DNA of 64,000 nucleotides from a virus (taxonomy: Duplodnaviria; Caudoviricetes), in the IMG/VR virus record IMGVR_UViG_3300011989_000010, positions 1-64,000 of that record, one strand, 5' to 3'. The position numbers and the translations under genes are program-made. Shown piece by piece: positions 7,252 through 39,711 of the stretch. The notes beneath the pieces were generated by a model. It saw nothing but the letters and a program-made list of their open reading frames with translations, did no database searches and was not told the origin of the DNA. Numbering within the stretch: the first letter of the stretch is position 1; each line of letters starts with the position of its first letter.

Positions 7252-7986
7252 TTAATTATAACCAAGCACGCCACGCACGGAAAACCCAAAGTTGCGGTAG
7301 TAGTAGTCCAAGCTCGCATTGCCTGAACCGAAGCCGAGGTACTGCCCGTTACCGACATTGCTCGTACTAAGCACCGAGGACCAAACGTAACCGTCGCCTC
7401 CACTATAGTGGACCGAACCGCCCCACGCAACACCAGCAGCAGGAATAAAGATAGACTTGGAAGGATCACTCTTTGAAGTGAATGTCATACCAGTACCGTT
7501 AGAAGTTGTCCAACCAGTATCAGTATTACTAATTAATTCCTGAATCTGCTTAGGAGTAGGCATATGCCAACTTCCTCCCATATTGGTGTGTGCAGCATCA
7601 TCCTCTAAATCCAATGTGGCACCCGTGGTTGTGTACTCACTAAACTTTGAAGAACTTCCATCAATGCTGAATTTATAATCATTCCAAGTGAATTGCTTGT
7701 CTTTTCCAACTTGTTCAGCTGTGTAACCACTTGTATCTCCCCAAGCGAAGTAAAGTCCATAATCTGAAGGCTTAGATGCACCCACATTCATTGTAGCCCA
7801 AAGTGTTCCGCTTGGAAGCCCTAAATCTACATAATCGTGTCCATTAGTCTTTGGTTTTGGTGGGTAGTTATAGTATACGCTCTCCTTGTCGTCACTAAAC
7901 GACACATTCGGCTTAAGGTACTTGTTCTTATCATCCCTATAAGCAACATAATCACTTTCAGTGCTAAATAATTTTAAATATTCCAT
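7252..7986 (-). CDS. C-type-lectin-fold (DUF1566-like) putative receptor-binding protein, DGR target paralog A
   Basis: YVDLGLPSGTLWATMNVGAS...DDAAHTNMGGSWHMPT...WSS...GFSVRGV, a Bacteroidota family known as DGR targets; GC-rich NNY-rich 3' end. Confidence 0.75.
   Translation of the reverse strand: MEYLKLFSTESDYVAYRDDKNKYLKPNVSFSDDKESVYYNYPPKPKTNGHDYVDLGLPSGTLWATMNVGASKPSDYGLYFAWGDTSGYTAEQVGKDKQFTWNDYKFSIDGSSSKFSEYTTTGATLDLEDDAAHTNMGGSWHMPTPKQIQELISNTDTGWTTSNGTGMTFTSKSDPSKSIFIPAAGVAWGGSVHYSGGDGYVWSSVLSTSNVGNGQYLGFGSGNASLDYYYRNFGFSVRGVLGYN
7261..7425 (-). repeat. DGR variable repeat (VR-A) with IMH-like 3' end
   Basis: Aligns gap-free to 38983-39150; identical 21-nt 3' end tccgtgcgtggcgtgcttggt; differences concentrated in codon positions 1-2 of NNC/NNT codons. 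Confidence 0.7.
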
Positions 7987-8097
7987 ATATTAAATTAATT
8001 ATTAATATTATGTTATATAATAAATATTAAAGAAATTATTAAAGAAAAAATGAAAATTAAATATACTCTTTCTTTTGTTTTTTTAACTTTTTTTTAG

Positions 8098-8105
8098 TAT
8101 ATTTG
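8098..8105 (+). promoter_or_regulatory. Bacteroidota-type -7 promoter element
   Basis: TATATTTG with TTTG upstream, 40 nt before the KTSC gene. Confidence 0.6.
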
Positions 8106-8145
8106 CGTGAGTAGTTAAAATTTATATAGAATAAAAAATTAATTC

Positions 8146-8649
8146 ATGAGCAAATTATTTAATTATTACGAAAATGATGTGGACAAGGTTTGGTATAATA
8201 GTTCTAACATCAAATATTCCGAATGCATTGACAAAGAGGGTCAATTAAAGGTTTTGAAGGTAGTCTTTTCAAATGGTACACAATATCAGTACAATGGCGT
8301 GAACGTTCAAGATTATCTTATGTTTCGTGAAAATGAATCTCAGGGGAAGGCATTAAACAAATTCATTAAGGCCAAAGGTTATGAATTTGAAAAGTTAGAT
8401 AATGCTGACCTTGATGCAATAAATGAAGAATATTCATTTAGAACAGGAAAGGGTGCTGAGATTGAATCTTATGATGGTGGCATTATAGTTTATGATTCAC
8501 AAAGACATGTTTTATGTGACATTGATTTGTCAAAAGAACAGTCATATGAAGGCGTTATTAAACAAGTACTTGAATCAGTTGGCTATATTGTAAAAGACCA
8601 AGATTTTGAATCAGGTGATTCTAATACAAAAGAAAAAGTTAATAGTTAA
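8146..8649 (+). CDS. KTSC-domain protein
   Basis: SSNIKYSE..LKVVFSNGTQYQYNGV...ESQGKALNKFIK fits the KTSC pattern. Confidence 0.65.
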   Translation: MSKLFNYYENDVDKVWYNSSNIKYSECIDKEGQLKVLKVVFSNGTQYQYNGVNVQDYLMFRENESQGKALNKFIKAKGYEFEKLDNADLDAINEEYSFRTGKGAEIESYDGGIIVYDSQRHVLCDIDLSKEQSYEGVIKQVLESVGYIVKDQDFESGDSNTKEKVNS

Positions 8650-8652
8650 TAA

Positions 8653-9657
8653 ATGGAAGTTAATAAAATTTATAATTGTGATTGCTTGGATGGTTTAAAG
8701 CAATTAGACGACAATTGTGTTGATTTGACTGTTACATCTCCTCCTTATGACAATTTAAGGAGTTATGGCGATATGGATAGTTGGAATTTTGAGATTTTTA
8801 AGCCTATTGCTGAACAATTGTTTAGGGTAACAAAAGATGGTGGTGTCGTTGTATGGGTTGTAGGTGATGCTTGTATTAATGGCTCAGAAACAGGTACATC
8901 ATTTCGTCAAGCATTGTATTTTATGCAATGTGGCTTTAAGCTCCATGATACAATGATATATGAGAAAAATTCTTCATCTTTTCCTGCAAGACGAGATTCA
9001 AAAAGGTATACACAAATTTTTGAATATATGTTTGTGTTTGTCAAAGGTAAAATTAGAAAGGATATTAAACTTATTGCAGACAAAAGAAATAAATGGGCAG
9101 GATGGACTAATTGGGGAAAGCATTCATCTTATACCAAAGATGAAAGGAAACAAGTAACCGATATAAAACATGTACCTGAATTTAGTCTTAGAAATAATAT
9201 TTGGAAATATTCAACATCATTCAATGACAAGACAAGTCATCCTGCTGTGTTTCCTGAGAAATTGGCAGAAGACCATATCAAGTCTTGGACTAATGAAGGT
9301 GATTTAGTGCTTGATCCATTTATGGGAAGTGGAACAACTGCTAAAATGGCAATGATAAATAAGCGAAATTATATAGGATTTGAAAGAAACAAAGATTATT
9401 ATGAAGAATCGCTTCTAAGAGTAGGAAAATACACTGATAAAATAAAAGAAGATACTGACGAAACAGTTGAAATCCCTGTGAATGAAGGTAAGGAAATATG
9501 TCAAGTTGATTCTAAAAATGATAATGAAGTAGAAGAAAAAACTAAGTTATTCAAAGAATATGTAGAAAAATTAAACGATTACTTCAACGAGCAAACTTTG
9601 GGTATTTTAAAAAATCTTAAATTCGTTTTCCAATCAAAATCAAAAGAACAAAAGTGA
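8653..9657 (+). CDS. Beta-class amino DNA methyltransferase (N4-mC/N6-mA)
   Basis: Motif IV TSPPY precedes motif I DPFMGSGTT; HPAVFPEKL; SPPY suggests N4-cytosine. Confidence 0.9.
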   Translation: MEVNKIYNCDCLDGLKQLDDNCVDLTVTSPPYDNLRSYGDMDSWNFEIFKPIAEQLFRVTKDGGVVVWVVGDACINGSETGTSFRQALYFMQCGFKLHDTMIYEKNSSSFPARRDSKRYTQIFEYMFVFVKGKIRKDIKLIADKRNKWAGWTNWGKHSSYTKDERKQVTDIKHVPEFSLRNNIWKYSTSFNDKTSHPAVFPEKLAEDHIKSWTNEGDLVLDPFMGSGTTAKMAMINKRNYIGFERNKDYYEESLLRVGKYTDKIKEDTDETVEIPVNEGKEICQVDSKNDNEVEEKTKLFKEYVEKLNDYFNEQTLGILKNLKFVFQSKSKEQK

Positions 9658-9661
9658 ATTT

Positions 9662-9832
9662 ATGATACCAAGTTTTATGAATATGCCTAATGGTGATTTG
9701 TTTTTACAAATGTTTGATTCGAACATCACTATAGATTTAAACGAAAGTAATTATTATTTAAAGAAGCGTTTTGAAGAAATTGGTAAAATAATACAACGTG
9801 TTAAAAATATGGAGAACTCCTTACAATTTTAA
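9662..9832 (+). CDS. Small hypothetical protein (56 aa)
   Basis: ATG...TAA frame filling the gap between the MTase and the P-loop gene; read manually. Confidence 0.45.
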   Translation: MIPSFMNMPNGDLFLQMFDSNITIDLNESNYYLKKRFEEIGKIIQRVKNMENSLQF

Positions 9833-9850
9833 ATTAATTTTTTTAAATTC

Positions 9851-10336
9851 ATGAGTGCAATTTTAGTAGCAGGATTCCCTGGTATCGGAAAGACTTATGC
9901 TTTCAACACATTAGGAAAGCAACTTAAAATACTTGATTCTGATTCAAGTAAGTTTGACAAGTCAGATTTTCCAAAAAATTATATAGAACATATTAAAGAA
10001 AATATTGTAAATAACGACATTATTTTCATTTCATCTCACAAAGAGGTTAGAGATGCCCTTGAAATGGAGAATATTGACTTTGATTTGTTCTATCCCTCTA
10101 AAGATAGACGAAATGAATTTTTGGAGAACTATGTAGCAAGACATTCTCCTAGAGATTTGATTATGAAGATTGATAATCATTGGAACGAATGGATTGATGA
10201 AATAGAACATGATAGCAATAAGAATTGTCACGCACATTGCCTATCTCATACAGGAGAATTTATTGGCAACAATCCAATGGTAATGACTTATGTGAATCAG
10301 GTAATTAAAGCAAAAGAAAGTAAAAATAATGAATAA
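9851..10336 (+). CDS. P-loop NTPase / nucleotide-kinase-like protein
   Basis: N-terminal Walker A VAGFPGIGKT; DSDSSKF. Confidence 0.65.
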   Translation: MSAILVAGFPGIGKTYAFNTLGKQLKILDSDSSKFDKSDFPKNYIEHIKENIVNNDIIFISSHKEVRDALEMENIDFDLFYPSKDRRNEFLENYVARHSPRDLIMKIDNHWNEWIDEIEHDSNKNCHAHCLSHTGEFIGNNPMVMTYVNQVIKAKESKNNE

Positions 10337-11270
10337 CGTTGATAAACAGTATTTAGACCTATTAAGGGATATTAAAGAGAATGGTGTTGAAAAGGACACA
10401 CGAAGTGGTAAAGTAAAATCAGTCTTTGGACGTACTTTACGATTCGACCTTAAAAAGGGTTTCCCTCTTTTAACCACAAAAAAAGTGTTTTATAGAGGTG
10501 TTATTGAAGAACTTTTATGGTTTTTAAGTGGTTCAACCAACATTAAACCACTAATCGAAAAGAATGTACACATTTGGGATGCTGACGCTTATAGATATTA
10601 TAAGGACTTGTCAAAATCATACAAAGAGGTTTTAGATTTTGATTCTTTTATTGAGGCAGTTAAAGAGGAAACAACATATGCGTTTAGAACTGACAAATCA
10701 AGTGTTTTTAAATATTATAAGGCAGGTGATTTAGGCCATGTATATGGGTATCAATGGCGAAATTTTGGAGGAAGTGGTGTTGACCAAATTAAGAATATAA
10801 TTGATACTCTTAAGAGCAATCCAAATGACAGACGTTTACTTTGTGTTGCATTTAATCCTGCTGATTTAAAGGATATGGCTTTACCGCCTTGTCATATTTT
10901 GTTTCAGTTCTATGTCAGAAAATTAGATGATGGACGACTTGGCTTGTCTTGTAAGTGGACTCAGAGAAGTGTGGATTCATTCTTAGGATTGCCATTCAAT
11001 ATTGCCTCTTATGCAGCCTTAACCTATATGATTGCAGAAGTAGTTGACATGGTGCCTGATGAACTAATTGGTGATTTGGGAGATACCCACATTTATATGA
11101 ATCATATGGATGCCGTTAATGAGCAATTAAGCAGGAATGGATATGATGAATTGCCAACACTAAAGTTTGGCAGAGAAATTAAGGATATTAATGATTTTAA
11201 ATATGAAGATTTTATAATTGAAAATTATAAATCAGATGGTAAAATATCAGCACCACTAAGTGTTGGATAA
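10329..11270 (+). CDS. thyA: Thymidylate synthase
   Basis: GFPLLTTKK, VYGYQWR, ALPPCH catalytic Cys, QRSVDSFLGLPFNIASY, DTHIYMNH. Confidence 0.97.
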   Translation: MNNVDKQYLDLLRDIKENGVEKDTRSGKVKSVFGRTLRFDLKKGFPLLTTKKVFYRGVIEELLWFLSGSTNIKPLIEKNVHIWDADAYRYYKDLSKSYKEVLDFDSFIEAVKEETTYAFRTDKSSVFKYYKAGDLGHVYGYQWRNFGGSGVDQIKNIIDTLKSNPNDRRLLCVAFNPADLKDMALPPCHILFQFYVRKLDDGRLGLSCKWTQRSVDSFLGLPFNIASYAALTYMIAEVVDMVPDELIGDLGDTHIYMNHMDAVNEQLSRNGYDELPTLKFGREIKDINDFKYEDFIIENYKSDGKISAPLSVG

Positions 11271-11274
11271 TGAA

Positions 11275-11312
11275 AAAAAGCGAGACTTGTAATGGTCTCG
11301 CTTTTATTTTTT
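11275..11312. terminator. Bidirectional intrinsic terminator
   Basis: aaaaaaagcgagac...gtctcgcttttatttt between convergent genes. Confidence 0.75.
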
Positions 11313-11315
11313 TTG

Positions 11316-12203
11316 TCATCTTCTAATGCCAAATCTACGTCTACCAGCACCTTGACTAACCACTTTAGGTTCTTCTTTAATTAAATATGGTTCATACATG
11401 CTTGGGTCTTTTTGTGCTTTAATGTACCACTGCATAATAGCACTTTTTTCTTTTTTAGGAATAAATTCGTCATATTGTGTTTGACCGAAGGTAGCAGGCT
11501 GAAAATCCCTATGTAAAATAGGAGAAGCATCACCATAGGTTTTTTCGGTTGCAGAATTTGCTCTCTTGTTTCTAATCCAATTTATAGAACCCTCAGGATA
11601 TGAATTTGTTTCTTTATTTAAAATGCCAACACTAATACGTGCTAACTTACCAGATGAAATTTGATTACATTTAATAAAGTCGGCCTTTGCAGCCTTGTAT
11701 TTAGGATTAAAGAAAAGGTTAGCCCATACAGGTTCACCTCCGCTATACACCCTTAATATTAGAGTATAATAACATCTACATCTATATAAGAAGTCTTTTT
11801 TATCTGCCGTTCTTGCGTAAAGGATGTCGTCAGCTACATAGAAAGTAGTTGGATGCATCCATTTATTTTTTTGATAAGTAGCTTTTTCATTATCTTTAGG
11901 GTCTTCATTAGTAGCTCTTGAATAAAGTGCACCTAAGTTATGTGAAATCTTCTCATAGACACCATAAATTGTCTCCACGATTTCATTCATTTCATCCTTC
12001 AATGCTTGATTGTATGTGTCAATATCTTTATCTTTAACTTCAGCACTAAGATTTGGATTTTTGAAGAAGCCTTTCTGATTCAACTTGTCGTACATATTGA
12101 ACCTATCTCTGGCATCAGTGATATTTTTATCCTCTTTCTCAATCAAATAGGTTAAACGGTTAAATTTTGCTTCGTTTAATATAATCGTCTTTTTCATCAT
12201 CAA
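11316..12203 (-). CDS. Hypothetical protein with MKKTIILNE leader
   Basis: 295-aa ORF; TATTTAT on sense strand at 12216-12222. Confidence 0.7.
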   Translation of the reverse strand: MMMKKTIILNEAKFNRLTYLIEKEDKNITDARDRFNMYDKLNQKGFFKNPNLSAEVKDKDIDTYNQALKDEMNEIVETIYGVYEKISHNLGALYSRATNEDPKDNEKATYQKNKWMHPTTFYVADDILYARTADKKDFLYRCRCYYTLILRVYSGGEPVWANLFFNPKYKAAKADFIKCNQISSGKLARISVGILNKETNSYPEGSINWIRNKRANSATEKTYGDASPILHRDFQPATFGQTQYDEFIPKKEKSAIMQWYIKAQKDPSMYEPYLIKEEPKVVSQGAGRRRFGIRR

Positions 12204-12249
12204 GAATATTTATATATAAATAACTTTTAAAGAGAAAAAAATATTTAAT

Positions 12250-12510
12250 ATGTTATATAACGATTATGATTCTTATGGATACGACACGTCCGAGCAATTC
12301 GTTTCATTAGCAGTTCAAAATGGTTTTGAATATGATGGCGAAAAGAAAAACAAAGAAAAGATTAAATACACTGAAATGGAATCATTCACTTCTGAGCATG
12401 GTGTCAAGGAGGCTGAGTTGTTAGTTCCTCTTTGCCTTTGTGGTAAGAAGATAACTCCAAAGTTGATTACGGATGACGATACAATTAATGATAGAAGAAC
12501 ACAGAACTAA
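12250..12510 (+). CDS. Hypothetical protein
   Basis: 86-aa ORF abutting the next gene. Confidence 0.5.
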   Translation: MLYNDYDSYGYDTSEQFVSLAVQNGFEYDGEKKNKEKIKYTEMESFTSEHGVKEAELLVPLCLCGKKITPKLITDDDTINDRRTQN

Positions 12511-12513
12511 ACA

Positions 12514-13419
12514 ATGAAAGTAATATTACCTGAATCTAAACTTTTATATTTAAAAAATAATCTACTAAAGGAAGAAAATTCATTAGTGGACAGGGACACC
12601 TATACTATAGGTGCTGAAGGTGATGGAGGTAATAACGAATATTTTCATATCGAAGAGAACCAAGAGCAAGAAGTCAATGCTGACGAAGTTAAATTAGATT
12701 CATTCAAGGCAGAAGACCATTTAGCACCAAAGATTTGGAAAGGTATGATGCTTAGTTCTAAGGTTAGACTTAAATTGTTGGACATTGCTGATGACTTTTG
12801 GGACACTTGTAATTTAGGATGGGTTAAATTAAGAGGAATACATTTAACAGGTTCCATTTGCAATTTTAATTGGTCAAAGTACTCAGATATTGATTTACAT
12901 TTAGTTGTTGATTTTTCTGATGTTAGCGAAAGAAAAGATTTCGTTCAACAATATTTCGATGCTAAAAAGAATGAATGGAATAATGAGCATGAGAACTTGA
13001 AGATTTACGGTTTTCCTGTAGAGTTATACGTTGAAGATATTAATGCTAAAACTGAGTCAGGAGGCTTATTTAATCTTGAAACCAATGCTTGGATTAAAGT
13101 ACCATCACCTGATGACGTACATTCTATTGAATTGGGCAAATACGAGATAAAAGAAAAGTCAGCAAATATTATGACAAAGATTGATAATTATTACAATCTT
13201 TTGAATAGTACAACTGATGATGCTAAATTAAGGAAGTTAGGTGATAAGGCGCATCGTCTTTTAAAGAAAATTAAAGCGATGAGAAAATTTGGTCTTAAAC
13301 GTGGTGGAGAAGGCGACCCTTATAATATTGTATATAAGGTGCTGAGAAGAACCGAATACCTTGATAAACTATGGAGCATTTCAAGTAAATTGTATGACAA
13401 ACTAAATAGTATTGAATAA
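12514..13419 (+). CDS. Pol-beta-superfamily nucleotidyltransferase
   Basis: LTGSICNFNWSKYSDIDLHLVVD (GS...DxD) with a third acidic residue in PVELYVED; leader MKVILPESKL. Confidence 0.75.
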   Translation: MKVILPESKLLYLKNNLLKEENSLVDRDTYTIGAEGDGGNNEYFHIEENQEQEVNADEVKLDSFKAEDHLAPKIWKGMMLSSKVRLKLLDIADDFWDTCNLGWVKLRGIHLTGSICNFNWSKYSDIDLHLVVDFSDVSERKDFVQQYFDAKKNEWNNEHENLKIYGFPVELYVEDINAKTESGGLFNLETNAWIKVPSPDDVHSIELGKYEIKEKSANIMTKIDNYYNLLNSTTDDAKLRKLGDKAHRLLKKIKAMRKFGLKRGGEGDPYNIVYKVLRRTEYLDKLWSISSKLYDKLNSIE

Positions 13420-14012
13420 TGGCTTTAAATTGGGATAAAGAATTTTTAAGGGATAAAAGAAAAGGCCGTTTTAGAACTGTAAAAAACGACAAAGGTGAAA
13501 AAGTTCCATCACATTGTGATAAATGTGGTGAGAAAATTTATATCTATATACAAGGTGAGCCAATATTTAAATGTGGAAAATGCGGTAAATATTTTGGAAC
13601 AGTACAATTTAATGAATCAAAAAATAGCCCTAAAAAAATTATCGTAAACGAAAAGCAATTTAAATTAATTTCTGAAGAGGTAGTTGCGGACGGTAATTCC
13701 GACCATAACCCTTATAAAAAGAAATGGGATGCAGAAAGAGACAGTTTGATTAGCTTTATTGTCAATAATGGCAAATTAATGACAAGCAAGGAAAACGGTA
13801 AAAAATACTACACACTTTTTGATGAAATGCTATCAAAATATATGGGAATTAATTTTGTACTTTGCGTACAATATAATGAAAAGGATTTAAAACCTGGGTC
13901 TATTGTTTATATAAGAGCACAAGATAAGTTTACTCCACAACTTTTCAATGATATTAATTTTGATTCAAGAGGAAGAGATAACATTAGTGGCACTCAAGAC
14001 GATTTAAATTGA
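13419..14012 (+). CDS. Zn-ribbon-containing hypothetical protein
   Basis: CDKC...CGKC; internal KKIIVNEKQFKLISEE motif. Confidence 0.6.
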   Translation: MALNWDKEFLRDKRKGRFRTVKNDKGEKVPSHCDKCGEKIYIYIQGEPIFKCGKCGKYFGTVQFNESKNSPKKIIVNEKQFKLISEEVVADGNSDHNPYKKKWDAERDSLISFIVNNGKLMTSKENGKKYYTLFDEMLSKYMGINFVLCVQYNEKDLKPGSIVYIRAQDKFTPQLFNDINFDSRGRDNISGTQDDLN

Positions 14013-14031
14013 TAAATTTAATAAAAAAAAT

Positions 14032-15220
14032 ATGCCAAAAAAGAAAACCAAAGAAGAATTCATAAAATAGGCTGATATTATACATAATTATAAATACAAC
14101 TATTCAAAAGTAAATTATATTAATAACAAAACTAAGGTTTGCATTATTTGCCCTGAGCATGGAGAATTTTGGCAAACACCTGCTAATCATTTAAAAGGAG
14201 CAAATTGTCCTAAATGTGGCTGTGTATTAAGAATTAAAAACAATACAAAATCTTTTGAGTGGTTTTTAAAAAAAGCTAATGAAATACATCATAACAAATA
14301 CAAGTATGATAGCACAAACTATATAAATACTAGTACACCTATTATTATCACATGTCCTAAACATGGATATTTTGTACAAAAACCTTGTTGGCATTTAAAA
14401 GGTGATGGATGCCCTAAATGTGCTGGAAATTATGTTTTATCAACTGAAGAATTTATCAAAAAAGCAAAAAAAATTCATGGTAATAAATATGATTACTCTA
14501 AAGTTAAATATATAAAAAGTAAAGAGAAAATATGCATAATTTGTCCTGAACACGGAGAGTTTTGGCAAACACCAAATGAGCATTTAATGGGCAACGGTTG
14601 CAAAAAATGCGGATATAAAAAAATCAGTAATAAAGTAAGTTTAACCACACAAGTTTTTATTGAACGTGCTAAAAAAATACATGGAGATAAGTACGATTAC
14701 AGTAAAGTAAAGTATGTTAGTACACGTGTACCTATTGCTATTATCTGTAAAAAGCATGGAATTTTTTATCAAAAGCCAAATTATCATTTATCTGGTTGTG
14801 GCTGTCCTTTTTGTAATAAAAGTAAATTAGAAGAAGAAATGAAAGAGTTTTTAGAGGAAAAAAAGATTTCATAATTAAGTTGCAAGGAAACCCACGAATC
14901 TTCAGTTCGTGGGAGGTTGACTTATTTACCAATTCAGAAATAATTTTCTTGGAAAACAATCATTAGATTTTTATTTACCTGATTATAATATTGGCATTGA
15001 GTGCCAAGGAAGGCAACACTTCGAACCTATAGATTTTGGAGGAAAAGGAGAAAAATGGGCTAAAAAACAATTAATTGAATCGAAAGAAAGAGATAATAAA
15101 AAATTTGAACTTTGTAAAAAACAAGGAATAAAATTAATTTATTATTTAAATAATAGTAAATATTTCGGAAATTATACAAACGAAATTCATAGCCCAATCG
15201 AAATAAAAAAATTTATTTAA
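14032..15220 (+). pseudogene. Disrupted Zn-ribbon-repeat (DUF723-like) / Vsr-like homing endonuclease
   Basis: One frame from ATG 14032 with an in-frame TAG at 14068; four HxxKYxYSxxxY...C-x2-HG-x-F-x-Q-x-P-x2-HL-x-G-x2-C-x2-C repeats; the nuclease part (LDFYLPDYNIGIECQGRQHF) lies in another frame after a ~49-bp insert. Confidence 0.8.
14874..14922 (+). mobile_element. ~49-bp IS605-end-like hairpin insertion (MITE/solo end)
   Basis: taagttgcaaggaaacccacgaatcttcagttcgtgggaggttgac; removing it restores ...KKIS-Y-IYQFRNNFLGKQSLD; resembles the left end at 27413-27460. Confidence 0.7.
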
Positions 15221-15280
15221 AAATTTTTGCTATTTACAAAGTATTTATTATTAAATTAATATATTAATTAAGATTATAAA

Positions 15281-17544: not shown

Positions 17545-17547
17545 TAT

Positions 17548-18047: not shown

Positions 18048-18048
18048 C

Positions 18049-29854: not shown

Positions 29855-31387
29855 ATGAAGAATAATAAAATAAGAAGCAAAGTTGTAAAGGAATCTTTAT
29901 TGGACTATAACAATCTTGCTAATACATTGAAAGAGAATACAACTGCTGCCGTTAGGGATTTACTTTCCGAGGCAGTACGTGATACATATTCTAAGATTCT
30001 TACCGAGGATGACGAGGATAAGGATTATGATGTAGAGGAAGTGGATGATACTGATTCTGGAACGAGTGGCGATGCAGACGCAACAGTAGATGATACTGAC
30101 GCAGAAGGCTCTGACGATGTGGATGCTGTGGATGTTGATGACACTGAAGACAGTGGTGACACCGAAGATGTTGATGACACTGAGGACGACGGTGAAATGA
30201 CTGACGAAGTACCTGCTGAAGGTGAGGGCGAAGACGGTGATGAATGGTCTCAATTCGACAAGTACAAGGTTTCAGATGACGAGTATGACTTCTCAAATGC
30301 GGAAGACGATGAAATCGTAAAAGTTTACAAGTTATTGAACAATGATGACCAAGTAATCGTTAATAAGAGTGATGATAATAAGGTCAACATTAAGGATAAC
30401 GAAACAGGCGCTGAGTATCTTATTGACTTAGGTGACGATGGCGCATCAGAAGATTTCGGTGGTGCTGAAGATGATTTTGGAGGTGATGACACTGGTTTCG
30501 ATGATGAAGATGACTTTGATAACGAAGAAGATAACGATATGAATGAATCTAGAATTTATGAAATAGCACTTGATGAATATGATTCTCATGTTGGCTATAC
30601 TGATAATTATCAGAGCAAGGACGTATTAGACACAAAGGGCGTTCCTGTCGCAGACGACAAGGACAGTAACGATTGGGGTTCTAAGGGTCTTAAGGATAGA
30701 GGCAACAGAAAGCCTTGGTCAGGAAAGAGAAATAACGCAAGCGAAAATCAGCCATTTACTGCTAGTAAGGGTAAGACTGTAGAAGAGGAAGATGACATCG
30801 AAGGCGGCGATGCAGAAGCAGCAATCTCAGAGAGTGCTGGCGAGTGTGGCGCTAAGATGGGTGCTAAACGTAGAATGAGAGGTACTAAGTCTCACAATCC
30901 AAATACAGGTGATGATGAAATCCCTTATGTTTCAAGCCATGCTTCAGTAGCAGGTGAATATAAGGGTAGTAAGGCTGATAAGTCTTATGGAAGTAAGGTT
31001 GAGTCAGTTATGCGTAAGGCTAACAAGATTTTCGCAGAAAACAAAGAACTTAAATCTGCACTTGGCAAATTTAAGAACGTACTCGAAGAGGCTGCGGTTA
31101 CGAACGTCAACCTTGGCCAGATTATCAAGTTGATTTCTGAAAACACAACATCTCAGAATGAGAAGAAGGAAATCATCGCACGATTTGGCAAAGAGGCTAA
31201 GACAGTTGAGCAGTCTAAGAACTTGTACGAATCAATCTCAAGAGATTTGCAGAAGAAGAATACCATGAATCTTGACGAAGGAAAGCAGTACGGAGTTGAG
31301 GGTTCTAAGCAAATCAACGAGACACAAATCTATCAGTCAAAGGATTTACTTGATTCACTTGACTTAATGCATAGACTTTGTAAGTAA
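29855..31387 (+). CDS. Prohead scaffold/core protein (gp22-like)
   Basis: Acidic 510-aa ORF with C-terminal coiled coil immediately upstream of the MCP; TATTTAT at 29814-29820. Confidence 0.7.
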   Translation: MKNNKIRSKVVKESLLDYNNLANTLKENTTAAVRDLLSEAVRDTYSKILTEDDEDKDYDVEEVDDTDSGTSGDADATVDDTDAEGSDDVDAVDVDDTEDSGDTEDVDDTEDDGEMTDEVPAEGEGEDGDEWSQFDKYKVSDDEYDFSNAEDDEIVKVYKLLNNDDQVIVNKSDDNKVNIKDNETGAEYLIDLGDDGASEDFGGAEDDFGGDDTGFDDEDDFDNEEDNDMNESRIYEIALDEYDSHVGYTDNYQSKDVLDTKGVPVADDKDSNDWGSKGLKDRGNRKPWSGKRNNASENQPFTASKGKTVEEEDDIEGGDAEAAISESAGECGAKMGAKRRMRGTKSHNPNTGDDEIPYVSSHASVAGEYKGSKADKSYGSKVESVMRKANKIFAENKELKSALGKFKNVLEEAAVTNVNLGQIIKLISENTTSQNEKKEIIARFGKEAKTVEQSKNLYESISRDLQKKNTMNLDEGKQYGVEGSKQINETQIYQSKDLLDSLDLMHRLCK

Positions 31388-31433
31388 AACGAAAAAATAA
31401 ATTAAAATTTTTATTAATAAAAATCTTTTATAA

Positions 31434-33416
31434 ATGAGAGAATTTTTAACTAGCGGTCAGGTCGGCAATATCGAGTTGAACGCACAAAAGAAGATACGTG
31501 AGGACATTCAGAATCGTTGGGACCAGTTAGGTTTCACTGAGGGTCTTGATGGTACAATCAAGGAGAATGTTGCTACATTGTATGAAAATGAGGCTAAGCA
31601 CTTGATTTATGAGGCTACTGCTTCTGATAACTCTGGCTCTTTCGAGACTGTAGTTTTCCCAATTATCCGTCGTGTATTCAGCAAGTTACTTGCTAACGAC
31701 ATTGTATCAGTTCAGGCTATGAACCTTCCTGTTGGTAAGTTGTTCTTCATCCTCCCTGTTACATCAGAGCGTGAGTGGGAAGTTCCTGCTGATGGCGCGG
31801 CTGCCGCAGCTGCTGGTGACATCGTAGATGGTACTACAGGTCGTCATAAGGGTCTTATGGGCTATGACCGTACTAACCGTAACAAGGAAGGTCGTGTTGA
31901 GCCACGTTACTATCTTCCTGATGAGACGGTTGCTGACTTGGAGAAGGATAAGTGGTATGTACCACAGTTGAATCAGACACCTGCTGATGCTACTACTTAC
32001 GATGCAGCATTGAAAGCAGCTAAGGATGCAGGTCTTGGTGTAACTGCTCTTCGTCAGGATGGTCCTGAGGTTACTCAGTACTTCGAGAAGAGTCTTTACG
32101 ACTTGTTCTACAACGACTTCCTTTATGATAATTCTAAGGGTAAGGTAACTATCAAGGTAGGTCAGGCTTCTCTTGCTAAGTTGACTCCACGTGGTATGGA
32201 GGATTTCGCAGCAGGTGATACAGTACAGGTTAACGGTTTCGATGGTACTGTTCGTAACGTAATCCTTAAGGTTTCAGGTTTCTCTTCATTCAACGCTTCT
32301 AAGTTGACTGGTCCTGATGGTAACGAGATGGACACTGAAGGTTTCTTGGCTTCATTGAAGGTTATTACAACTGAAGCTATTGCATCTACAGGTGTTGAGG
32401 GTGCAAGTGGTGTTACTACTGCATCGTTCAAGAAGTATGAAGCAGTTCCTTTCCGTGTTGCTACTCAGAAATATGGCAAGGGTATCGTAGAGTATGGTAA
32501 TGCTTGCGATGCTGAAGGTAATATGTATCTTGAACTTGACCTTGCTAAACCAGTTGTTCAGCAGGCAGGTACAATTGATGGTTATGTAGGTGTTGCACCT
32601 ACTGCTATCACAGATGCATCAATGTTCAAGGTTGCTTGGGCACAGTATGACTCACTTGAGTTGGAGACTGAGATTGGTGAGGTTTCATTCAAGTTGGATT
32701 CAGTAACTGTCTCAGTTGAGGAGCGTAAGTTACGTGCTACATGGTCTCCAGAGTTGGCACAGGATGTTAGCGCATTCCACAACATTGATGCAGAGGCAGA
32801 GTTGACTGCTATTCTTTCTGAGCAGATTGCTGCTGAGATTGACCGTGAGATTCTTCGTGACCTTCGTAAGGGTGCACCTTGGCAGGCTCGTTGGGATGTA
32901 AATGGTTGGAGACGTATGGCAGCTTTCTCTACTAACTACACTCAGAAGGATTGGAATCAGGAGTTATTCACAAAGATTAATCAGATTTCTGCTCAAATCC
33001 ACAAGGCTACTCTTCGTGGTGGTGCTAACTTCATCGTAGTATCTTCAGAGATTTCTGCATTGTTCGATAACCTTGAGTACTTCCACGTAAGTGATGCATC
33101 TGCTGAGTCAGATCAGTACAATATGGGTATTGAGAAGATTGGTTCTTTGAATGGTCGTTATCAGGTATATCGTGACCCGTATTCTCCACACTGGTCAATC
33201 ATCATTGGTCACAAGGGTAAGTCACTTCTTGATACAGGTTACATCTATGCACCGTATGTACCAATGCAGTTGACTCCTACAATGTACAACCCATTCAACT
33301 TTGCTCCTGTAAAAGGCATTATGACCAGGTACGCTAAGAAGATGGTGAACAACAGATATTATGGTCACATTCGTGTCGATGGTTTGGTCCATTGGGATAT
33401 TGCTGAACTTAGATAA
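31434..33416 (+). CDS. Major capsid protein (T4 gp23-like)
   Basis: PIIRRVF..LAND IVSVQAM..PVG, RKLRATWSPELAQD, DAEAELTAILSEQIAAEIDREI, YIYAPYVP, F.PVKGIMTRYA; GC-richer high-expression codons. Confidence 0.95.
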   Translation: MREFLTSGQVGNIELNAQKKIREDIQNRWDQLGFTEGLDGTIKENVATLYENEAKHLIYEATASDNSGSFETVVFPIIRRVFSKLLANDIVSVQAMNLPVGKLFFILPVTSEREWEVPADGAAAAAAGDIVDGTTGRHKGLMGYDRTNRNKEGRVEPRYYLPDETVADLEKDKWYVPQLNQTPADATTYDAALKAAKDAGLGVTALRQDGPEVTQYFEKSLYDLFYNDFLYDNSKGKVTIKVGQASLAKLTPRGMEDFAAGDTVQVNGFDGTVRNVILKVSGFSSFNASKLTGPDGNEMDTEGFLASLKVITTEAIASTGVEGASGVTTASFKKYEAVPFRVATQKYGKGIVEYGNACDAEGNMYLELDLAKPVVQQAGTIDGYVGVAPTAITDASMFKVAWAQYDSLELETEIGEVSFKLDSVTVSVEERKLRATWSPELAQDVSAFHNIDAEAELTAILSEQIAAEIDREILRDLRKGAPWQARWDVNGWRRMAAFSTNYTQKDWNQELFTKINQISAQIHKATLRGGANFIVVSSEISALFDNLEYFHVSDASAESDQYNMGIEKIGSLNGRYQVYRDPYSPHWSIIIGHKGKSLLDTGYIYAPYVPMQLTPTMYNPFNFAPVKGIMTRYAKKMVNNRYYGHIRVDGLVHWDIAELR

Positions 33417-33445
33417 TCTATTGATTACTAATAAGTTATATAATG

Positions 33446-33481
33446 AAAAGAGTTCTCATTTTTGGGAACTCTTTTTTTTTT
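33446..33481 (+). terminator. Intrinsic terminator after the MCP
   Basis: aaaagagttctc...gggaactctttttttt. Confidence 0.75.
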
Positions 33482-33568
33482 ATCTTTTCCAATAAATAAA
33501 ACCTTTTAAATTTGCTTTTAATAAAAATTTATTATATATTTGCAATATGAAAAATAAATTAAAATTTT

Positions 33569-35278
33569 ATGGGAAAGAAAGTAACAATAAATGAAAATGA
33601 CATAATTAATGATTACAAATCATCAGTTATAAGTGTTGACTCCTTAGCTAAAAAATATCATGTTGGCAAAATAAGAATCAGGAAAATACTATCTGATAAT
33701 AATGTTGAAAGGAGGAAACGTGGAGGACAGGAAAAAGGTTTTAATTTTAAACCTGATGATTGGAAAATTGAAAAGTATCCAAAAATAAACGGAAAACACT
33801 ACATTGCTTATTCCAAAGATGGAAAATATTATACAAATGATTATATGAATCAGGCAGGTAAGCTTACTTCATACATTAAAACATTGGGTATTGAAATTCC
33901 GACATTGTATGATAGAAGAAAATATTATATGATGAATGGAAATTATTGGTGGGAGCAGTGGTTTGATATTAAGTTAATTGACGATAAACCTGTTAAAAAA
34001 TGTCCATATTGTGATTGGGAAACAACTGATATTGAGAACAAAAGTGGAATGTTTATGCAGCATTTAATAAAAGAGCATAAACTAACCATTGAAGAATATC
34101 TTAAAAAACACCCTGAAGATAATGATTATTTTCAAAAACAAGCTAAAATTATAGCTAAAAATAAACTATTAATTGATGATGGGAATTATGTCAAATGCCC
34201 CATTTGTGGTAAAAAAATGATGAGAATGACTTATTGGCATATTAAAAATCATGGACTTACCATAACTGAATTTAAATATAAATTTCCTGATTTTAAAATG
34301 GAATCAGAATTAATGGAGGAAAAAGATAGGGAAAACCAAAAATTAAGCAATTTAGCTGAGCGAAAAACAGAAACCGTATCACTTGCTGAAAAAGAAATAT
34401 CAGATTTTTTAGAAAAAAATAAAATTAATATTGTTAAGAATGACAGAAAAATATTAGATGGGAAAGAAATTGACATTTTAATTCCTGACTATAACATTGG
34501 TATTGAGTATGATGGGCTAAGATATCATTGCGAGGGGGTATCTAACAAAACCTCTGATAGTCATTTGTTTAAGACAAAAAAAGCCGCCGAAAAAGGAATC
34601 AATTTAATACACATTTTTGAAGATGAATATCAAATTCATAAAGAATTAGTTTTTGATAAAATTAAGCAAATATTGCATTTAAATAATAATATTAAAATAG
34701 GTGCAAGAAAATGCAAAATAAAAGAAATTAATTCAGATGCAGCTAAAGATTTTTTAAATGCTTTCCATTTACAGGGGTTTGCCAACTCATCAGTTTATAT
34801 AGGTGCTTTTTATAACAATGAACTTATTGGTGTAATGACTTTTAAAAAGAATGGCTTGGACAAAACTGAACAGTGGGAATTGAATAGATTTGCTACCAAT
34901 TTTAAATATAATTGTCAAGGACTTGGTAGTAAATTATTTAAATATTTCATTAATTTAAAAAATCCATATACTGTATCAAGTTTTGCTGATAGAAGATGGA
35001 CTCTTAACCCATTTAATAATTTATATATAAATTTAGGCTTTAAATTCAGTGGCTTTACAAGACCAAGTTATACATATTTTAAATTAAAATGGGGTAAAGG
35101 CGAAGATAGATATAAAAGATTTCATAAGATGGATTTCAGAAAGCATATACTTCTTAAAAAGCATTCTGAATTATCTTCTGATATGACTGAATATGAAATG
35201 GCTAAAACATTAGGCTATGGCAGAATATGGGATTGTGGTATGCTAAAATATGTTTGGTATAATGAAAACATAAATTAA
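33569..35278 (+). CDS. Hef-like mobile endonuclease (Zn fingers, PD-(D/E)xK domain, GNAT-like C-domain)
   Basis: CPYC..H..H and CPICG; EIDILIPDYNIGIEYDGLRYH; GARKC..FLNAFHLQG; WELNRFA; SFADRRW; RIWDCG; TATATTTG at 33535-33542. Confidence 0.7.
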   Translation: MGKKVTINENDIINDYKSSVISVDSLAKKYHVGKIRIRKILSDNNVERRKRGGQEKGFNFKPDDWKIEKYPKINGKHYIAYSKDGKYYTNDYMNQAGKLTSYIKTLGIEIPTLYDRRKYYMMNGNYWWEQWFDIKLIDDKPVKKCPYCDWETTDIENKSGMFMQHLIKEHKLTIEEYLKKHPEDNDYFQKQAKIIAKNKLLIDDGNYVKCPICGKKMMRMTYWHIKNHGLTITEFKYKFPDFKMESELMEEKDRENQKLSNLAERKTETVSLAEKEISDFLEKNKINIVKNDRKILDGKEIDILIPDYNIGIEYDGLRYHCEGVSNKTSDSHLFKTKKAAEKGINLIHIFEDEYQIHKELVFDKIKQILHLNNNIKIGARKCKIKEINSDAAKDFLNAFHLQGFANSSVYIGAFYNNELIGVMTFKKNGLDKTEQWELNRFATNFKYNCQGLGSKLFKYFINLKNPYTVSSFADRRWTLNPFNNLYINLGFKFSGFTRPSYTYFKLKWGKGEDRYKRFHKMDFRKHILLKKHSELSSDMTEYEMAKTLGYGRIWDCGMLKYVWYNENIN

Positions 35279-35394
35279 AGCTGAATGGAGGTTCTTAATT
35301 GAATCTCCATTTTTTTATTTTTATATATTTAATATTTATCATCCTTAAAAACTATTTATATAAAAATAAGCATATTAATAAATTATAATAAATT

Positions 35395-35667
35395 ATGTCC
35401 AAACTTTTTGACCCATTGGCATCTTATGTAACAATGCCTTCAAGTGCAGAAAGCACTAACTATATAAATGGTGATTTTGCACCTGACCATAAAGGAGATT
35501 ACAGAAAAGGTATTGCAGTAACTTCTGAAGAAATAACAGGTGATTTGTCAGATGACAATTTACCTTTTGCCTTAAGAACTGAATTTAAAGAAGAAACAAA
35601 GGCTTCTGATACAAATAAAGATGCTGCAAGTGCAAAAACTGATGATTCTTCTGATTCAAATAAATAA
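35395..35667 (+). CDS. Hypothetical late protein
   Basis: 90-aa ORF; TATTTAT at 35353-35359. Confidence 0.6.
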   Translation: MSKLFDPLASYVTMPSSAESTNYINGDFAPDHKGDYRKGIAVTSEEITGDLSDDNLPFALRTEFKEETKASDTNKDAASAKTDDSSDSNK

Positions 35668-35695
35668 TTTAGCAAGGGAATAAAAATTAAATAAA

Positions 35696-35938
35696 ATGAA
35701 TGATTTAAAGCTTAATAAGCAGAATAAGGGTAATTATGTATCTGCAACAACACTTGACAATTACTATACTAAAGAACAGACAAGTGCTGCAACTGCAATA
35801 CAAGAGGCTTTAAATTGTAAACAGGATACAGGTAATTATGCATTAAAATCTGATTTGATTAGTGGATATAGTGAGGATGATTTAGTCGGCTTAATTAAAA
35901 AATTAGATGAAAAAATTACAAAATTAGAGAATAAATAA
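35696..35938 (+). CDS. Small fibre-related protein
   Basis: DNYYTKEQTSAATAIQEAL resembles the YYKKEETS repeat of the downstream fibre. Confidence 0.55.
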   Translation: MNDLKLNKQNKGNYVSATTLDNYYTKEQTSAATAIQEALNCKQDTGNYALKSDLISGYSEDDLVGLIKKLDEKITKLENK

Positions 35939-35940
35939 AT

Positions 35941-38871
35941 ATGACAAAAATTAGACATTTAGAGCCTTATGGCTTTAATGAGCAACCACAATTTAATGGT
36001 CTTGCAAATACTGTTAAGGCTAATATTGAAAATATTAAGGAAAAGAATCAGGAGCAAGACAAAAAAGATGAATCACAGGATGAAAATATCAAACAAGCCA
36101 TTGATAAATCTGTAGTTTCACTTGAAATGCTAAGTACCCCAACAGAAGGAAGCAACAGAACATATGCAGTTAAACAGGGTGGAAATGAAATTGGAAAGAT
36201 AGAGATTCCATTCAGTAGCCTTGTTAAGTCAACAACTTATGATGCAGAAAAAAATCTTCTTATATTCACAATTGACCATGACAAGGAGATAAAAGTTAAC
36301 TTGACAGACCTAATTGAAGATGCTGACTTGGTGCAAAGGAGAATATTTGATGACTTCAAAAATGAAGTTAATTCATTTAGCTCTAATACAACTGATTCAA
36401 TATCTGAACTTGTACAAAAATTAGGAAGTGGATTTACAGGCGCAAATACTGTTACATCTGTTATTGAGAGAAACGAAAAAGTAGTTTCTTCATCACTCAA
36501 TGACTTGAATGATAGAAAACTTGACGCATCTGCATATACACCTACAGACTTGTCAGATTATTATAAGAAAGAAGAAACAAGTGGCAAGACGGATTTAGAT
36601 ACTGCATTTAATTCAAAAGCTAATAAGACTGACTTAGACACCCATATTAGTGATAAGATAAAGCATATTACTGCTGATGAAAGAACTAAGTGGGATAACG
36701 CTACGGATACATTGGCAACCCATACAGGAGATTCTACTATTCATATTAGTGCCGATGAAAGAACTAAGTGGGATAACGCTACGGATACATTGGCAACACA
36801 TACAGGCGATTCTGCAATCCATATCACTTCAGATGAAAGAACTAAGTGGGATGGAAAGATTTCAAACGCACAGTATAATAGTAGTGACAAAAAGATATAC
36901 TTCTATAGTGGGGCAACTACAGAAAGCCCAGTAGCAAATATTGATGCTACAGATTTTATTAAGGACGGAATGGTATCTAATGTGGAAATAAAGGATGTTG
37001 AAAACAGTGGTTCTTGTCTTGTTATAACATTTAACGCGGACGCTGGAAAGCAAGATATTAATATTCCTATTTCCACAATATTTAATCCCACAAACTATTA
37101 TTTGAAGACTGAAACAAGTGGTAGTACTGAGCTAAATACAGCATTTGGCTTAAAGGCTAATCAATCTGATTTCACTGCCCATACAGGAAATAACGGCATA
37201 CATATTACTGCCGATGAAAGAAGTAAGTGGAATAATGCAGCAGCAAGCAGTCATACACACACAAATAAGGCTATATTAGACACGATAACAACTATTGATA
37301 CTGAGCTTAATGAAAATTCAAAGAACTTAGTGGAAAATTCTGCCATAACAAAGGTAATACTAGAAAATGAAAAAATAGTTTCAGCATCACTTAATGATTT
37401 AAATGACAGAAAACTTGATGCATCTGCATATACTAAAACAGACTTGTCAGATTACTACAAGAAAGAGGAAACAAGTGGAAAGACGGATTTAGATGCTGCA
37501 TTTAATAAAAAGGCTAATTCTACTGACTTGGCTACAAAGGCTAACCAATCTGACTTTACTGCCCATATTAGTGATAATATCAAGCATATTACTTCAGATG
37601 AAAGAACTAACTGGAATAATGCTGCCACAAATAGCCATACACACGCAAATAAAGACGTATTGGACAAGATAACAACAATTGATAGTGAACTTAGTGACGC
37701 ATCAAACAATTTGGTTGTAAATTCTGCCATCACAAAGGTAATAGTAGATAATGAGAAAGTAGTTTCAGCAGCTCTTAATGACTTGAATGATAGAAAACTT
37801 GACTCATCTGCATATACGCCTACGGACTTGTCAGATTACTACAAAAAGGAAGAAACAAGCGCTAAAACTGAATTGACAACGGCATTTAATTTAAAGGCTA
37901 ATTCTGCTGACTTAACTGCTCATACGGGCAATTCTGCAATCCATATTACTTCAGATGAAAGAACTAAATGGAATGGAAAACTTTCAAATGCTCAATACAG
38001 TAAAGCTGATAAGAAGATATACTTCTATAGTGGATCAACTACAGAAACACCAGTATTAAACATTGATGCTACGGATTTTATTAAGGATGGAATGGTATCA
38101 AAAGTAGAAATAAAGGATGTTGAAAACAGTGGTTCTTGCCTTGTAATAACATTTAATGCAGATGCTGGCAGTCAGGTTATAACAATTCCTGTGTCTAAAA
38201 TATTCGATTCTGGAAAGTATTATTTGAAGACTGAAACAAGTGGGAAGACAGAAATATCTGGCGCACTTGCGCTAAAGGCTGATACGTCTGCATTAACTGC
38301 CCATACTGGAAATAACGACATACATATTACTACCGCTGAAAGAACAAAGTGGAATAATGCTGACGCAAATAGCCATACACACGCAAATAAAGACGTATTA
38401 GACAAGATAACGGCTATTGACACAGAACTTAGTAAAACATCAAACAATTTGGTTGTAAATTCCGCTATCACAAAGGTAATACTAGAAAATGAAAAAATAG
38501 TTTCAGCATCACTTAATGATTTAAATGACAGAAAGCTTGATGCTTCAGCATATACTAAAACAGACTTGTCAGATTACTACAAGAAGGAAGAAACAAGTGG
38601 CAAGTCAGAAATAGATACAGCATTAGCAGCAAAGTCTAATACAGGGCATAAGCATCAATCTAGTGATATAAGTGATATCGTTACTGGAATTACAGCTTCA
38701 AATAGTGGTTCAACAAGTGTACCAACAGTGAACGCAGTTATGCAGTTAATTAATGCTAAGTTAGATATAAATTACACTGGATTCACAGGTACTACACTTA
38801 CAGGAGTTACAACTATTGTTGAGGCAATTCAAAAAATTGCTGACAAGTTAGATAAACTTCCAAATAGCTAA
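35941..38871 (+). CDS. Repeat-built tail/head fibre protein
   Basis: 976 aa with 4x SLNDLNDRKLDxSAYTxTDLSDYYKKEETS, 7x H(I/T)xxxxxHIxxxERxxW, 2x KKIYFYSG..FIKDGMVS..GSCLVITFNADAG and 3x SHTHxNKxxLD. Confidence 0.7.
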   Translation: MTKIRHLEPYGFNEQPQFNGLANTVKANIENIKEKNQEQDKKDESQDENIKQAIDKSVVSLEMLSTPTEGSNRTYAVKQGGNEIGKIEIPFSSLVKSTTYDAEKNLLIFTIDHDKEIKVNLTDLIEDADLVQRRIFDDFKNEVNSFSSNTTDSISELVQKLGSGFTGANTVTSVIERNEKVVSSSLNDLNDRKLDASAYTPTDLSDYYKKEETSGKTDLDTAFNSKANKTDLDTHISDKIKHITADERTKWDNATDTLATHTGDSTIHISADERTKWDNATDTLATHTGDSAIHITSDERTKWDGKISNAQYNSSDKKIYFYSGATTESPVANIDATDFIKDGMVSNVEIKDVENSGSCLVITFNADAGKQDINIPISTIFNPTNYYLKTETSGSTELNTAFGLKANQSDFTAHTGNNGIHITADERSKWNNAAASSHTHTNKAILDTITTIDTELNENSKNLVENSAITKVILENEKIVSASLNDLNDRKLDASAYTKTDLSDYYKKEETSGKTDLDAAFNKKANSTDLATKANQSDFTAHISDNIKHITSDERTNWNNAATNSHTHANKDVLDKITTIDSELSDASNNLVVNSAITKVIVDNEKVVSAALNDLNDRKLDSSAYTPTDLSDYYKKEETSAKTELTTAFNLKANSADLTAHTGNSAIHITSDERTKWNGKLSNAQYSKADKKIYFYSGSTTETPVLNIDATDFIKDGMVSKVEIKDVENSGSCLVITFNADAGSQVITIPVSKIFDSGKYYLKTETSGKTEISGALALKADTSALTAHTGNNDIHITTAERTKWNNADANSHTHANKDVLDKITAIDTELSKTSNNLVVNSAITKVILENEKIVSASLNDLNDRKLDASAYTKTDLSDYYKKEETSGKSEIDTALAAKSNTGHKHQSSDISDIVTGITASNSGSTSVPTVNAVMQLINAKLDINYTGFTGTTLTGVTTIVEAIQKIADKLDKLPNS
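36676..36851 (+). repeat. 78-bp tandem repeat in the fibre gene
   Basis: gatgaaagaactaagtgggat recurs at 36676, 36754 and 36832. Confidence 0.85.
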
Positions 38872-38894
38872 CAAATAATATAATATTAAAAAAA

Positions 38895-38943
38895 TGAAAA
38901 CGTATGAATGCCAAATAGCAAAGGCAATCATACGTTTTTTTTT
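38895..38943. terminator. Bidirectional terminator
   Basis: aaaacgtatgaatgcc...ggcaatcatacgtttttttt between convergent genes. Confidence 0.7.
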
Positions 38944-38979
38944 GTATTAATTAAAAATAAATAAAAAGATAAATAAATC

Positions 38980-39711
38980 CTAACCAAGCACGCCACGCAC
39001 GGAGAACCCGTAGTAACGGTAGTTGTAGTAAAGGTCGACAAAGCTTGAACGGAAGCCGAGGTACTGCCCGTAATAGACATTGCCCGTACTCAGCATAGAG
39101 GACCAAACGACACCGCTGCTACCACTATAGGCAAGTGAACCACTCGAAGCGTAACCTGCAGCAGGAATAAAGATAGATTTTGAAGTATCAGTCTTTGAAG
39201 TAAACAATCTACCATTTACTCCATCCAGTTTCGTCCACGTGCTTGTAGTGCCATTAAGAAGCTCCTGAATTTGTGTAGGTGTAGGCATTTTCCAAGTACC
39301 TCCCATATTAACGTATGCAGCATCGTCCTCTAATTCTAATCTTGCACCAGTGGTTTTGTACTTGCTAAAGTTTGAAGAACTTCCATCAATGCTCCATTTG
39401 TAATTATCCCAGTCGAACTGTTTATCCTTTCCTACTTGTTCAGCTGTGTAACCAGTTGTGTCTCCCCATTGGAAGTAAAGACCTGTATCACTTGGCTTAG
39501 ATGCCCCCACATTCATTGTAGCCCAAAGTGTTCCACTTGTAAGCCCTAAATCTACATAATCGTGCCCATTAGCTTTTGGTTTTGGTGGGTAGTTATAGTA
39601 TACGCTCTCCTTGTCGTCACTAAACGACACATTCGGCTTCAAGTATTTACTCTTGTCATCTCTATATGCCAAATAGTTCGTTTCAGTGTCAAATAATTTT
39701 AAATATTCCAT
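38980..39711 (-). CDS. C-type-lectin-fold putative receptor-binding protein, DGR target paralog B
   Basis: Near-identical N-terminal two-thirds to 7252-7986; hypervariable C-terminus. Confidence 0.75.
   Translation of the reverse strand: MEYLKLFDTETNYLAYRDDKSKYLKPNVSFSDDKESVYYNYPPKPKANGHDYVDLGLTSGTLWATMNVGASKPSDTGLYFQWGDTTGYTAEQVGKDKQFDWDNYKWSIDGSSSNFSKYKTTGARLELEDDAAYVNMGGTWKMPTPTQIQELLNGTTSTWTKLDGVNGRLFTSKTDTSKSIFIPAAGYASSGSLAYSGSSGVVWSSMLSTGNVYYGQYLGFRSSFVDLYYNYRYYGFSVRGVLG
38983..39150 (-). repeat. DGR variable repeat (VR-B)
   Basis: Gap-free alignment to VR-A with the same 21-nt 3' end. Confidence 0.7.

Follow-up and report, generated by a model that had tools for sequence, protein, structure and literature searches.

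Two paralogous genes with variable C-terminal tails

The DNA analyzed here, a 64,000-nucleotide window, is the first part of an 87,879-bp linear IMG/VR record from a phage of the class Caudoviricetes (IMGVR_UViG_3300011989_000010, here G000), for which CheckV estimates a completeness of 25%. Our subject is a pair of paralogous genes in this window, A and B. Gene A (7252..7986, minus strand) is an open reading frame for a 244-aa protein in which an N-terminal module of about 45 aa is followed by a predicted C-type-lectin-fold domain of the Lcl_C/DUF1566 type. Gene B (38980..39711, minus strand) encodes a 243-aa paralog with 75% amino acid identity to A, and the same B protein sequence is recorded on two contigs. 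An original prediction, made from the letters of the window alone, described the pair as lectin-fold genes with variable repeats in the style of diversity-generating retroelements (DGRs), with neither a reverse transcriptase (RT) nor a template repeat (TR) nearby, and proposed that one cassette elsewhere in the genome diversifies both genes in trans. Both genes are real and lie where they had been placed. That their tails are DGR-type variable regions is well supported at the level of the protein family, and we lean toward the view that these regions are now static or only rarely rewritten.

The variable-region-like tail is the last 57 codons of each gene (7261..7431 in A and 38983..39153 in B, both minus strand). 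That of A is GC-rich and adenine-poor, and contains about 20 hypervariable codons that all have the form NNY, where N is any base and Y a pyrimidine; all 20 of these codons are NNY in B as well. Between the two genes, 42 of the 171 tail nucleotides differ (25%) without any insertion or deletion, with 19 differences at first, 10 at second, and 13 at third codon positions. This agrees with what had been described, namely changes mainly at positions 1–2 (29/42) of codons that are nearly all NNC or NNT. The accompanying statement that the genes are near-identical upstream was too strong, since 19% of bases differ across the upstream 186 codons, mostly at third positions, and the synonymous divergence (dS) is about 0.66 there versus 0.42 in the tail. 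Heavy divergence of the tail is borne out for the amino acids, with a ratio of nonsynonymous to synonymous divergence (dN/dS) of 0.62 versus 0.22 upstream, but in bases the tail is only moderately more diverged than the rest of the gene. Because the gene bodies are themselves this diverged, the contrast between A and B that the original prediction used is a weak one.

The tails also stand apart in composition. GC content is about 0.55 in the tail, about 0.40 upstream, and 0.34 in the whole record, and adenine accounts for 12% of invariant bases in the tail versus 36% upstream. In gene A, only 2 of 33 four-fold degenerate codons in the tail carry adenine at the third base, versus 27 of 75 upstream.

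Both genes end in an identical stretch of 23 nt, TCCGTGCGTGGCGTGCTTGGTTA, two nucleotides longer than the 21 first reported. By alignment, this conserved GC-rich 3′ end lies at 7259..7281 in A and 38981..39003 in B (minus strand), a position like that of the initiation of mutagenic homing (IMH) sequence of a DGR. The only hairpins that we could read by eye downstream of the two genes are terminator-like and AT-rich, 45–60 nt away. One is followed by a T run and lies about 60 nt after the stop codon of A (7178..7197, minus strand), and the other, also followed by a T run, lies about 45 nt after that of B (38900..38935, minus strand). From their sequences, the hairpin 3′ of A is most likely a terminator and not the GC-rich hairpin of a DGR, and that of B is most likely a terminator as well.

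The tails belong to a predicted C-type-lectin-fold domain

An AlphaFold model of residues 45–243 of protein A, built from an alignment of 83 sequences, had a predicted local distance difference test (pLDDT) score of 96. Its best structural match was the C-terminal domain of Legionella Lcl (Z 7.6, root-mean-square deviation 2.9, 104 residues aligned), and further matches included the DGR variable proteins TvpA (Z 7.2), TaqVP (6.3), and Mtd (5.8). Most of the top 50 structural matches are named as C-type-lectin or formylglycine-generating-enzyme-type proteins. Since every Z score is below 8, the fold call rests on the consistency of this list and not on any single score. Read in this way, the model places the domain of A and B in the C-type-lectin fold, of the Lcl_C/DUF1566 (CLec2) type, which bears out the lectin-fold claim of the original prediction. 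A Foldseek search of the PDB gave no significant match, and sequence and profile searches of the PDB gave none.

Among the 83 aligned homologs, 60 match PF07603 and 6 match PF09603 (E ≤ 0.01). Domains of the DUF1566/Fib_succ_major kind constitute category d of DGR targets, which made up 14% of the set surveyed by Wu et al. (2018; PMC5758913). Multiple copies per locus were seen in this family: one 6.4-kb metagenome contig (L163) carries seven tandem lectin-domain paralogs, and many Bacteroidales loci hold arrays of two to four lectin-domain copies.

Homologs beside canonical DGR cassettes

Two loci link the family directly to DGRs. At the first (L152), a 245-aa homolog precedes an accessory gene, a repeat of 190 nt, and a gene matching the RT family RVT_1, and every mismatch between the variable region and the template falls on an adenine of the second repeat copy, the template. 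An IS1595-family transposase gene is located directly 3′ of this RT (L152:7931-8953). The second is a Paludibacteraceae genome (G023; loci L317 and L385-L390), in which one template accompanies five variable regions of the lectin family on four contigs, with 22–28 of 24–29 mismatches at template adenines. This system is a bacterial multi-target DGR for this lectin family.

The templates of L152 and L317 were translated and aligned by eye with the tails, and most of the 20 hypervariable positions fall on Asn codons of the L152 template. Across the 120 closest homologs, these positions have an entropy of 2.5–3.5 bits, and the residues K, E, Q, M, and W make up 2.9% of the total there versus 21% at variable positions upstream. 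The tail scaffold around them is invariant, includes the motif WSS, and ends in SVRGV. An indirect imprint of adenine mutagenesis is present in the tails of A and B in the form of hypervariable codons that are exclusively NNY and are mostly matched by AAY in a homologous template.

Sister alleles diversify while gene A appears static

Alleles were compared within clusters of 90% identity. In the pairs P0030/P0356 and P0098/P0357, there are no differences in about 170 upstream residues and 21–22 in the tail. The same tail-only pattern is seen in P0012/P0355 and in the P0099 cluster, and several sister clusters combine identical gene bodies with 15–22 changes in the variable region. Sister lineages of the A/B subfamily are, as judged from these sequences, under active diversification.

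Such tail-only differences between alleles, which signify ongoing diversification, were found in sister clusters and not in gene A. The tail of A is identical in three alleles (P0001, P0121, and P0122), even though these alleles have different stop codons and, in the N-terminal module, six substitutions and a deletion across seven aligned columns. Gene A has company in this respect, as 10 of the 19 clusters likewise show a static tail. The variable region of gene A thus looks frozen and not actively rewritten. A separate cluster of ENA/Logan sequences (P0113 and P0135-P0141) has an aberrant tail: a stretch of about 27 residues looks as though it were read in a shifted frame, NTTNYHN follows, and variation is limited to a few later positions.

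These comparisons also bear on whether a DGR was ever involved. A and B could instead be ordinary paralogs with ligand-binding loops under diversifying selection, the composition of their tails stemming from a horizontal origin in higher-GC Bacteroidales combined with a binding-site preference for Tyr, Asn, Asp, Gly, and Ser. Among the fetched metagenome and genome loci, just 2 of the roughly 250 gene ends of the family have a cassette in cis, and distant members without a DGR are also poor in K, E, Q, M, and W (9% at the same positions); therefore, family membership alone does not imply targeting. The well-diverged gene bodies of A and B, and a tail dN/dS that does not exceed 1, would also be compatible with ordinary paralogs. 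Point mutation plus selection, however, cannot yield the allele pairs described above, in which all 21–22 changes are in the tail. Nor would this explanation account for variable positions that lie mostly on Asn codons of a homologous template, or for a depletion of adenine at silent sites that is confined to the tail. We consider it improbable that no DGR took part. The fold, the cassettes beside homologs, the Asn codons of the template, the NNY-only repertoire, and the sister alleles together provide good support, at the family level, for the claim that the C-termini of A and B are DGR-type variable repeats.

Search for a reverse transcriptase and a template

The absence of an RT or a template near A and B, remarked on for the window, holds across all 87,879 bp of the record, an estimated 25% of the genome. 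RVT_1 had no match in the record, and tblastn searches with three DGR RTs, together with searches for two accessory proteins, recovered no homolog. A third copy of the repeat was found neither in the window nor in the full record, where blastn at low stringency returned only A, B, and a further paralog, C (see below). Related sequences were equally silent. No RT was detected in four IMG/VR fragments that carry family members (three of them close and A-type), in the complete Lak-A2 genome, or in the complete phage relatives G008, G010, and G013, and no template was detected in the related fragments G001, G002, and G004. Family members (P0050, P0019, and P0142) also lie on ENA contigs of 340–378 kb, the lengths of which matched none of those listed among the top hits of two RT homology searches. 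IMG/VR was also scanned for an exact pattern in which the variable sites of A and B were set to N, with 0 matches, and the 20-mer core of the 3′ end occurred elsewhere in IMG/VR only in the variable regions of two related fragments. A 14-base pattern from the 3′ end was also tried; it produced scattered single-site matches on unrelated contigs, which we read as chance. In sum, an adenine-rich template beside an RT or Avd gene, which the original prediction expected in the rest of the genome, was found neither in the 87.9-kb record nor in the homolog-bearing IMG/VR fragments nor in 401 Bacteroidales genomes.

In a further reading, the phage has no cassette of its own, and its orphan tails would be rewritten only during infection of a Bacteroidales host, or on meeting a co-resident element, with a DGR template that matches their conserved 3′ end. 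This would be cross-genome mutagenic retrohoming, which would let a jumbo phage borrow its host's diversifier. In favor of this reading, Bacteroidales genomes carry this domain family in many copies, at least one of these genomes has a multi-target DGR for it, and several complete phage relatives have no RT. The 3′ ends of A and B have GGNTTTTCCGTGCGTG in common with the L152 template, but the last 15 nt of A and B are unlike the end of that template. Furthermore, nothing like the A tail was found at E ≤ 1e-8 in the 400 sampled Bacteroidales genomes besides G023, and the G023 copies are only 72–78% identical to the A tail over about 75 nt. We know of no case of cross-genome retrohoming, and regard rewriting by a host DGR as very improbable.

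Closer to the phage itself, two relatives that belong to the same clade by their major capsid protein carry canonical Avd/TR/RT DGR cassettes with adenine-only mismatches and with other targets. G014 is a complete 356-kb jumbo-phage relative (65% capsid identity) with two cassettes, L302 (G014:C1:84000-98000) and L303 (G014:C1:232000-246000). The former consists of a 433-aa RT, a 135-aa gene in the position of Avd, a template, and an 1816-aa protein that has the variable region as its C-terminus, and its mismatches fall on adenines only. In G009 (82% capsid identity; L304, G009:C1:84000-97000), the RT reading frame contains the template within its 5′ end, and the 674-aa target directly adjoins a tail-fiber gene. 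These 674- and 1816-aa targets are unlike A and B, with no detectable kinship to either, no member of the A/B family was found in either genome, and the cassettes have no neighboring genes in common with G000.

Are the tails of A and B still being rewritten?

In the model put forward by the original prediction, the part of the genome that has no sequence holds one RT/Avd/template cassette, which now diversifies A and B, as well as the truncated paralogs, in trans. Several observations favor this model. Non-adjacent targets and DGR components that act in trans are documented (PMC5758913), a homologous bacterial system serves five dispersed targets from one template, the phage relatives G009 and G014 have DGR cassettes, and diversification is under way in sister lineages of the subfamily. 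The identical GC-rich 23 nt at the ends of both tails would also be expected. Other observations speak against it. The tail of A is identical in three otherwise diverged alleles, neither G000, G001, G002, and G004 nor the scan of IMG/VR for the exact 20-mer revealed a template, an RT is lacking in the complete relatives G008, G010, and G013, and the downstream hairpins are only of the AT-rich, terminator-like type, 45–60 nt off.

The differences between A and B can be examined in the same light. Adenine is involved in only 2 of 13 differences at third positions versus 19 of 29 at positions 1–2 (Fisher p = 0.006), and silent differences are equally frequent in the scaffold of the tail (8/35) and in the gene body (35/138). 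Equal silent divergence and the scarcity of adenine among third-position differences argue against one shared template. We had also considered the silent divergence of the scaffold as proof against such a template and dropped it, because third-position adenines in a template could equally have produced seven of the eight silent scaffold differences. With no RT, Avd-like gene, or template found in the record, the homolog-bearing IMG/VR fragments, or the 401 Bacteroidales genomes, three complete relatives lacking an RT, and an A tail that does not vary, we judge it unlikely, if still deserving of attention, that one cassette is now diversifying A and B in trans.

We are inclined to a different reading, which we hold to be somewhat probable: the tails of A and B are variable regions that were made by a DGR and that are now static or rarely rewritten, with the cassette lost or distant. 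Under this reading, A, B, a degraded C, and two truncated copies would be accessory phage proteins, each consisting of the N-terminal module of about 45 aa and a CLec2-type domain. A complementary DNA (cDNA) would have been copied from a template repeat rich in Asn codons, with random bases incorporated opposite template adenines, and this cDNA would have taken the place of the gene's 3′ end as far as the conserved GC-rich stretch. Retrohoming of this kind would yield about 20 hypervariable NNY codons within an invariant, adenine-poor scaffold. A template for A and B would be expected to end in TCCGTGCGTGGCGTGCTTGG and to have AAY at the roughly 20 hypervariable codons. In the present phage lineage, neither variable region would currently be rewritten, the RT/template cassette having either been lost or acting only rarely from the three quarters of the genome that have no sequence.

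Several points weigh against this preferred reading. Stasis is judged from three A alleles and a single B allele. The available record amounts to only about a quarter of the genome, so a cassette may lie in the remainder, and the relatives G009 and G014 do possess canonical ones, albeit with other targets. The comparison of A with B is ambiguous, as frozen tails and tails served by one template are not separable by it, even though equal silent divergence in the scaffold suggests that no shared template has homogenized the two. Pfam and NCBIfam gave no match to protein A or B directly. Finally, K, E, Q, M, and W are also scarce in the distant members without a DGR, and the tolerance of the binding site may account for part of the compositional signal.

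Relation to known DGR targets

A and B have much in common with the CLec2 targets of category d (DUF1566 and DUF823 as well as Fib_succ_major; for example, Legionella LdtA, PMC5758913), including the C-terminal variable region of about 57 codons, the Lcl_C/DUF1566 fold, NNY codons in a fixed scaffold with WSS and an SVRGV end, and the GC-rich 3′ end. What sets A and B apart is that neither an RT nor an accessory gene nor a template turned up with them, and that A, at 244 aa, is no lipoprotein but a phage protein whose N-terminal module is phage-specific. A second comparison is with multi-target DGRs, of which that of Treponema denticola has seven targets and that of G023 five. A and B resemble their targets in being dispersed lectin paralogs with homologous variable regions and a common 3′ end. 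In the multi-target systems, however, a template is present and the variable regions differ from it only at adenines, whereas no template was found for A and B and gene A is static across alleles. Mtd of Bordetella phage BPP-1 is likewise a phage C-type-lectin-fold protein with a C-terminal variable region, and gene B, for its part, adjoins a tail-fiber gene. Mtd nevertheless sits beside avd-TR-brt, its structural similarity to A is modest (Z 5.8), and a virion or receptor-binding role for A and B is only putative.

By these comparisons, A and B are ordinary members of the known CLec2 target class in an incomplete genome. Remote and multiple DGR targets are already documented, so the idea of a cassette in trans would not be new even if true. 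Targets of phage-associated DGRs are nearly always less than 50 kb from the RT (Wu et al., 2018; PMC5758913), and a distant cassette, if found in a genome of roughly 350 kb, would extend the rule that phage targets lie within about 50 kb. DGR surveys find targets only beside an RT and miss remote ones (Roux et al., 2021; PMC8144416). A and B demonstrate that a variable region can be recognized without its cassette, through an NNY-only repertoire, adenine depletion at silent sites, and allele comparison. They also indicate that one phage lectin family holds both frozen copies and copies that are still being rewritten.

Genome context and further paralogs

Genes for a terminase, a portal, a major head protein, and a tail-fiber-like protein are present on the record. 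The major capsid protein is 80–95% identical to that of IMG/VR phages of 295–412 kb, which identifies the record as a jumbo-phage fragment; the source is a rumen or gut jumbo phage with a genome of roughly 350 kb. More distant homologs of A and B belong for the most part to Bacteroidales from the guts of ruminants and other animals, and to Prevotella Lak phages. The tail-fiber-like gene (35941..38871, plus strand) encodes a repeat-rich protein of 976 aa that matches PHROG tail and tail-fiber families, and it adjoins gene B, with which it is convergent.

In G005, the closest IMG/VR relative, gene A and its flanks (window 7063–7987) are missing as a clean indel of about 0.9 kb, and the ClpC-like gene there abuts the next gene. 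The segment with B, a glycosyltransferase gene, and C is also replaced in G005. With A absent and the B–C segment exchanged, the lectin genes can be regarded as accessory cargo.

Paralog C (40673..41421, minus strand) is 54% identical to A and frameshifted, as determined from tblastn matches in two frames and alignment. Its N-terminal module and lectin domain lie in different frames, and its tail has no GC-rich variable-region character. The original prediction had overlooked C along with two N-terminal stubs at the contig ends. One is an 18-codon remnant of a further paralog, detected by tblastn and cut by the contig end (1..54, minus strand), and a matching stub occupies the other end (87796-87879 of the full record, plus strand). 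Each end of the contig therefore cuts a further paralog within its conserved N-terminal module, which suggests that the assembly broke at this repeated lectin gene family.

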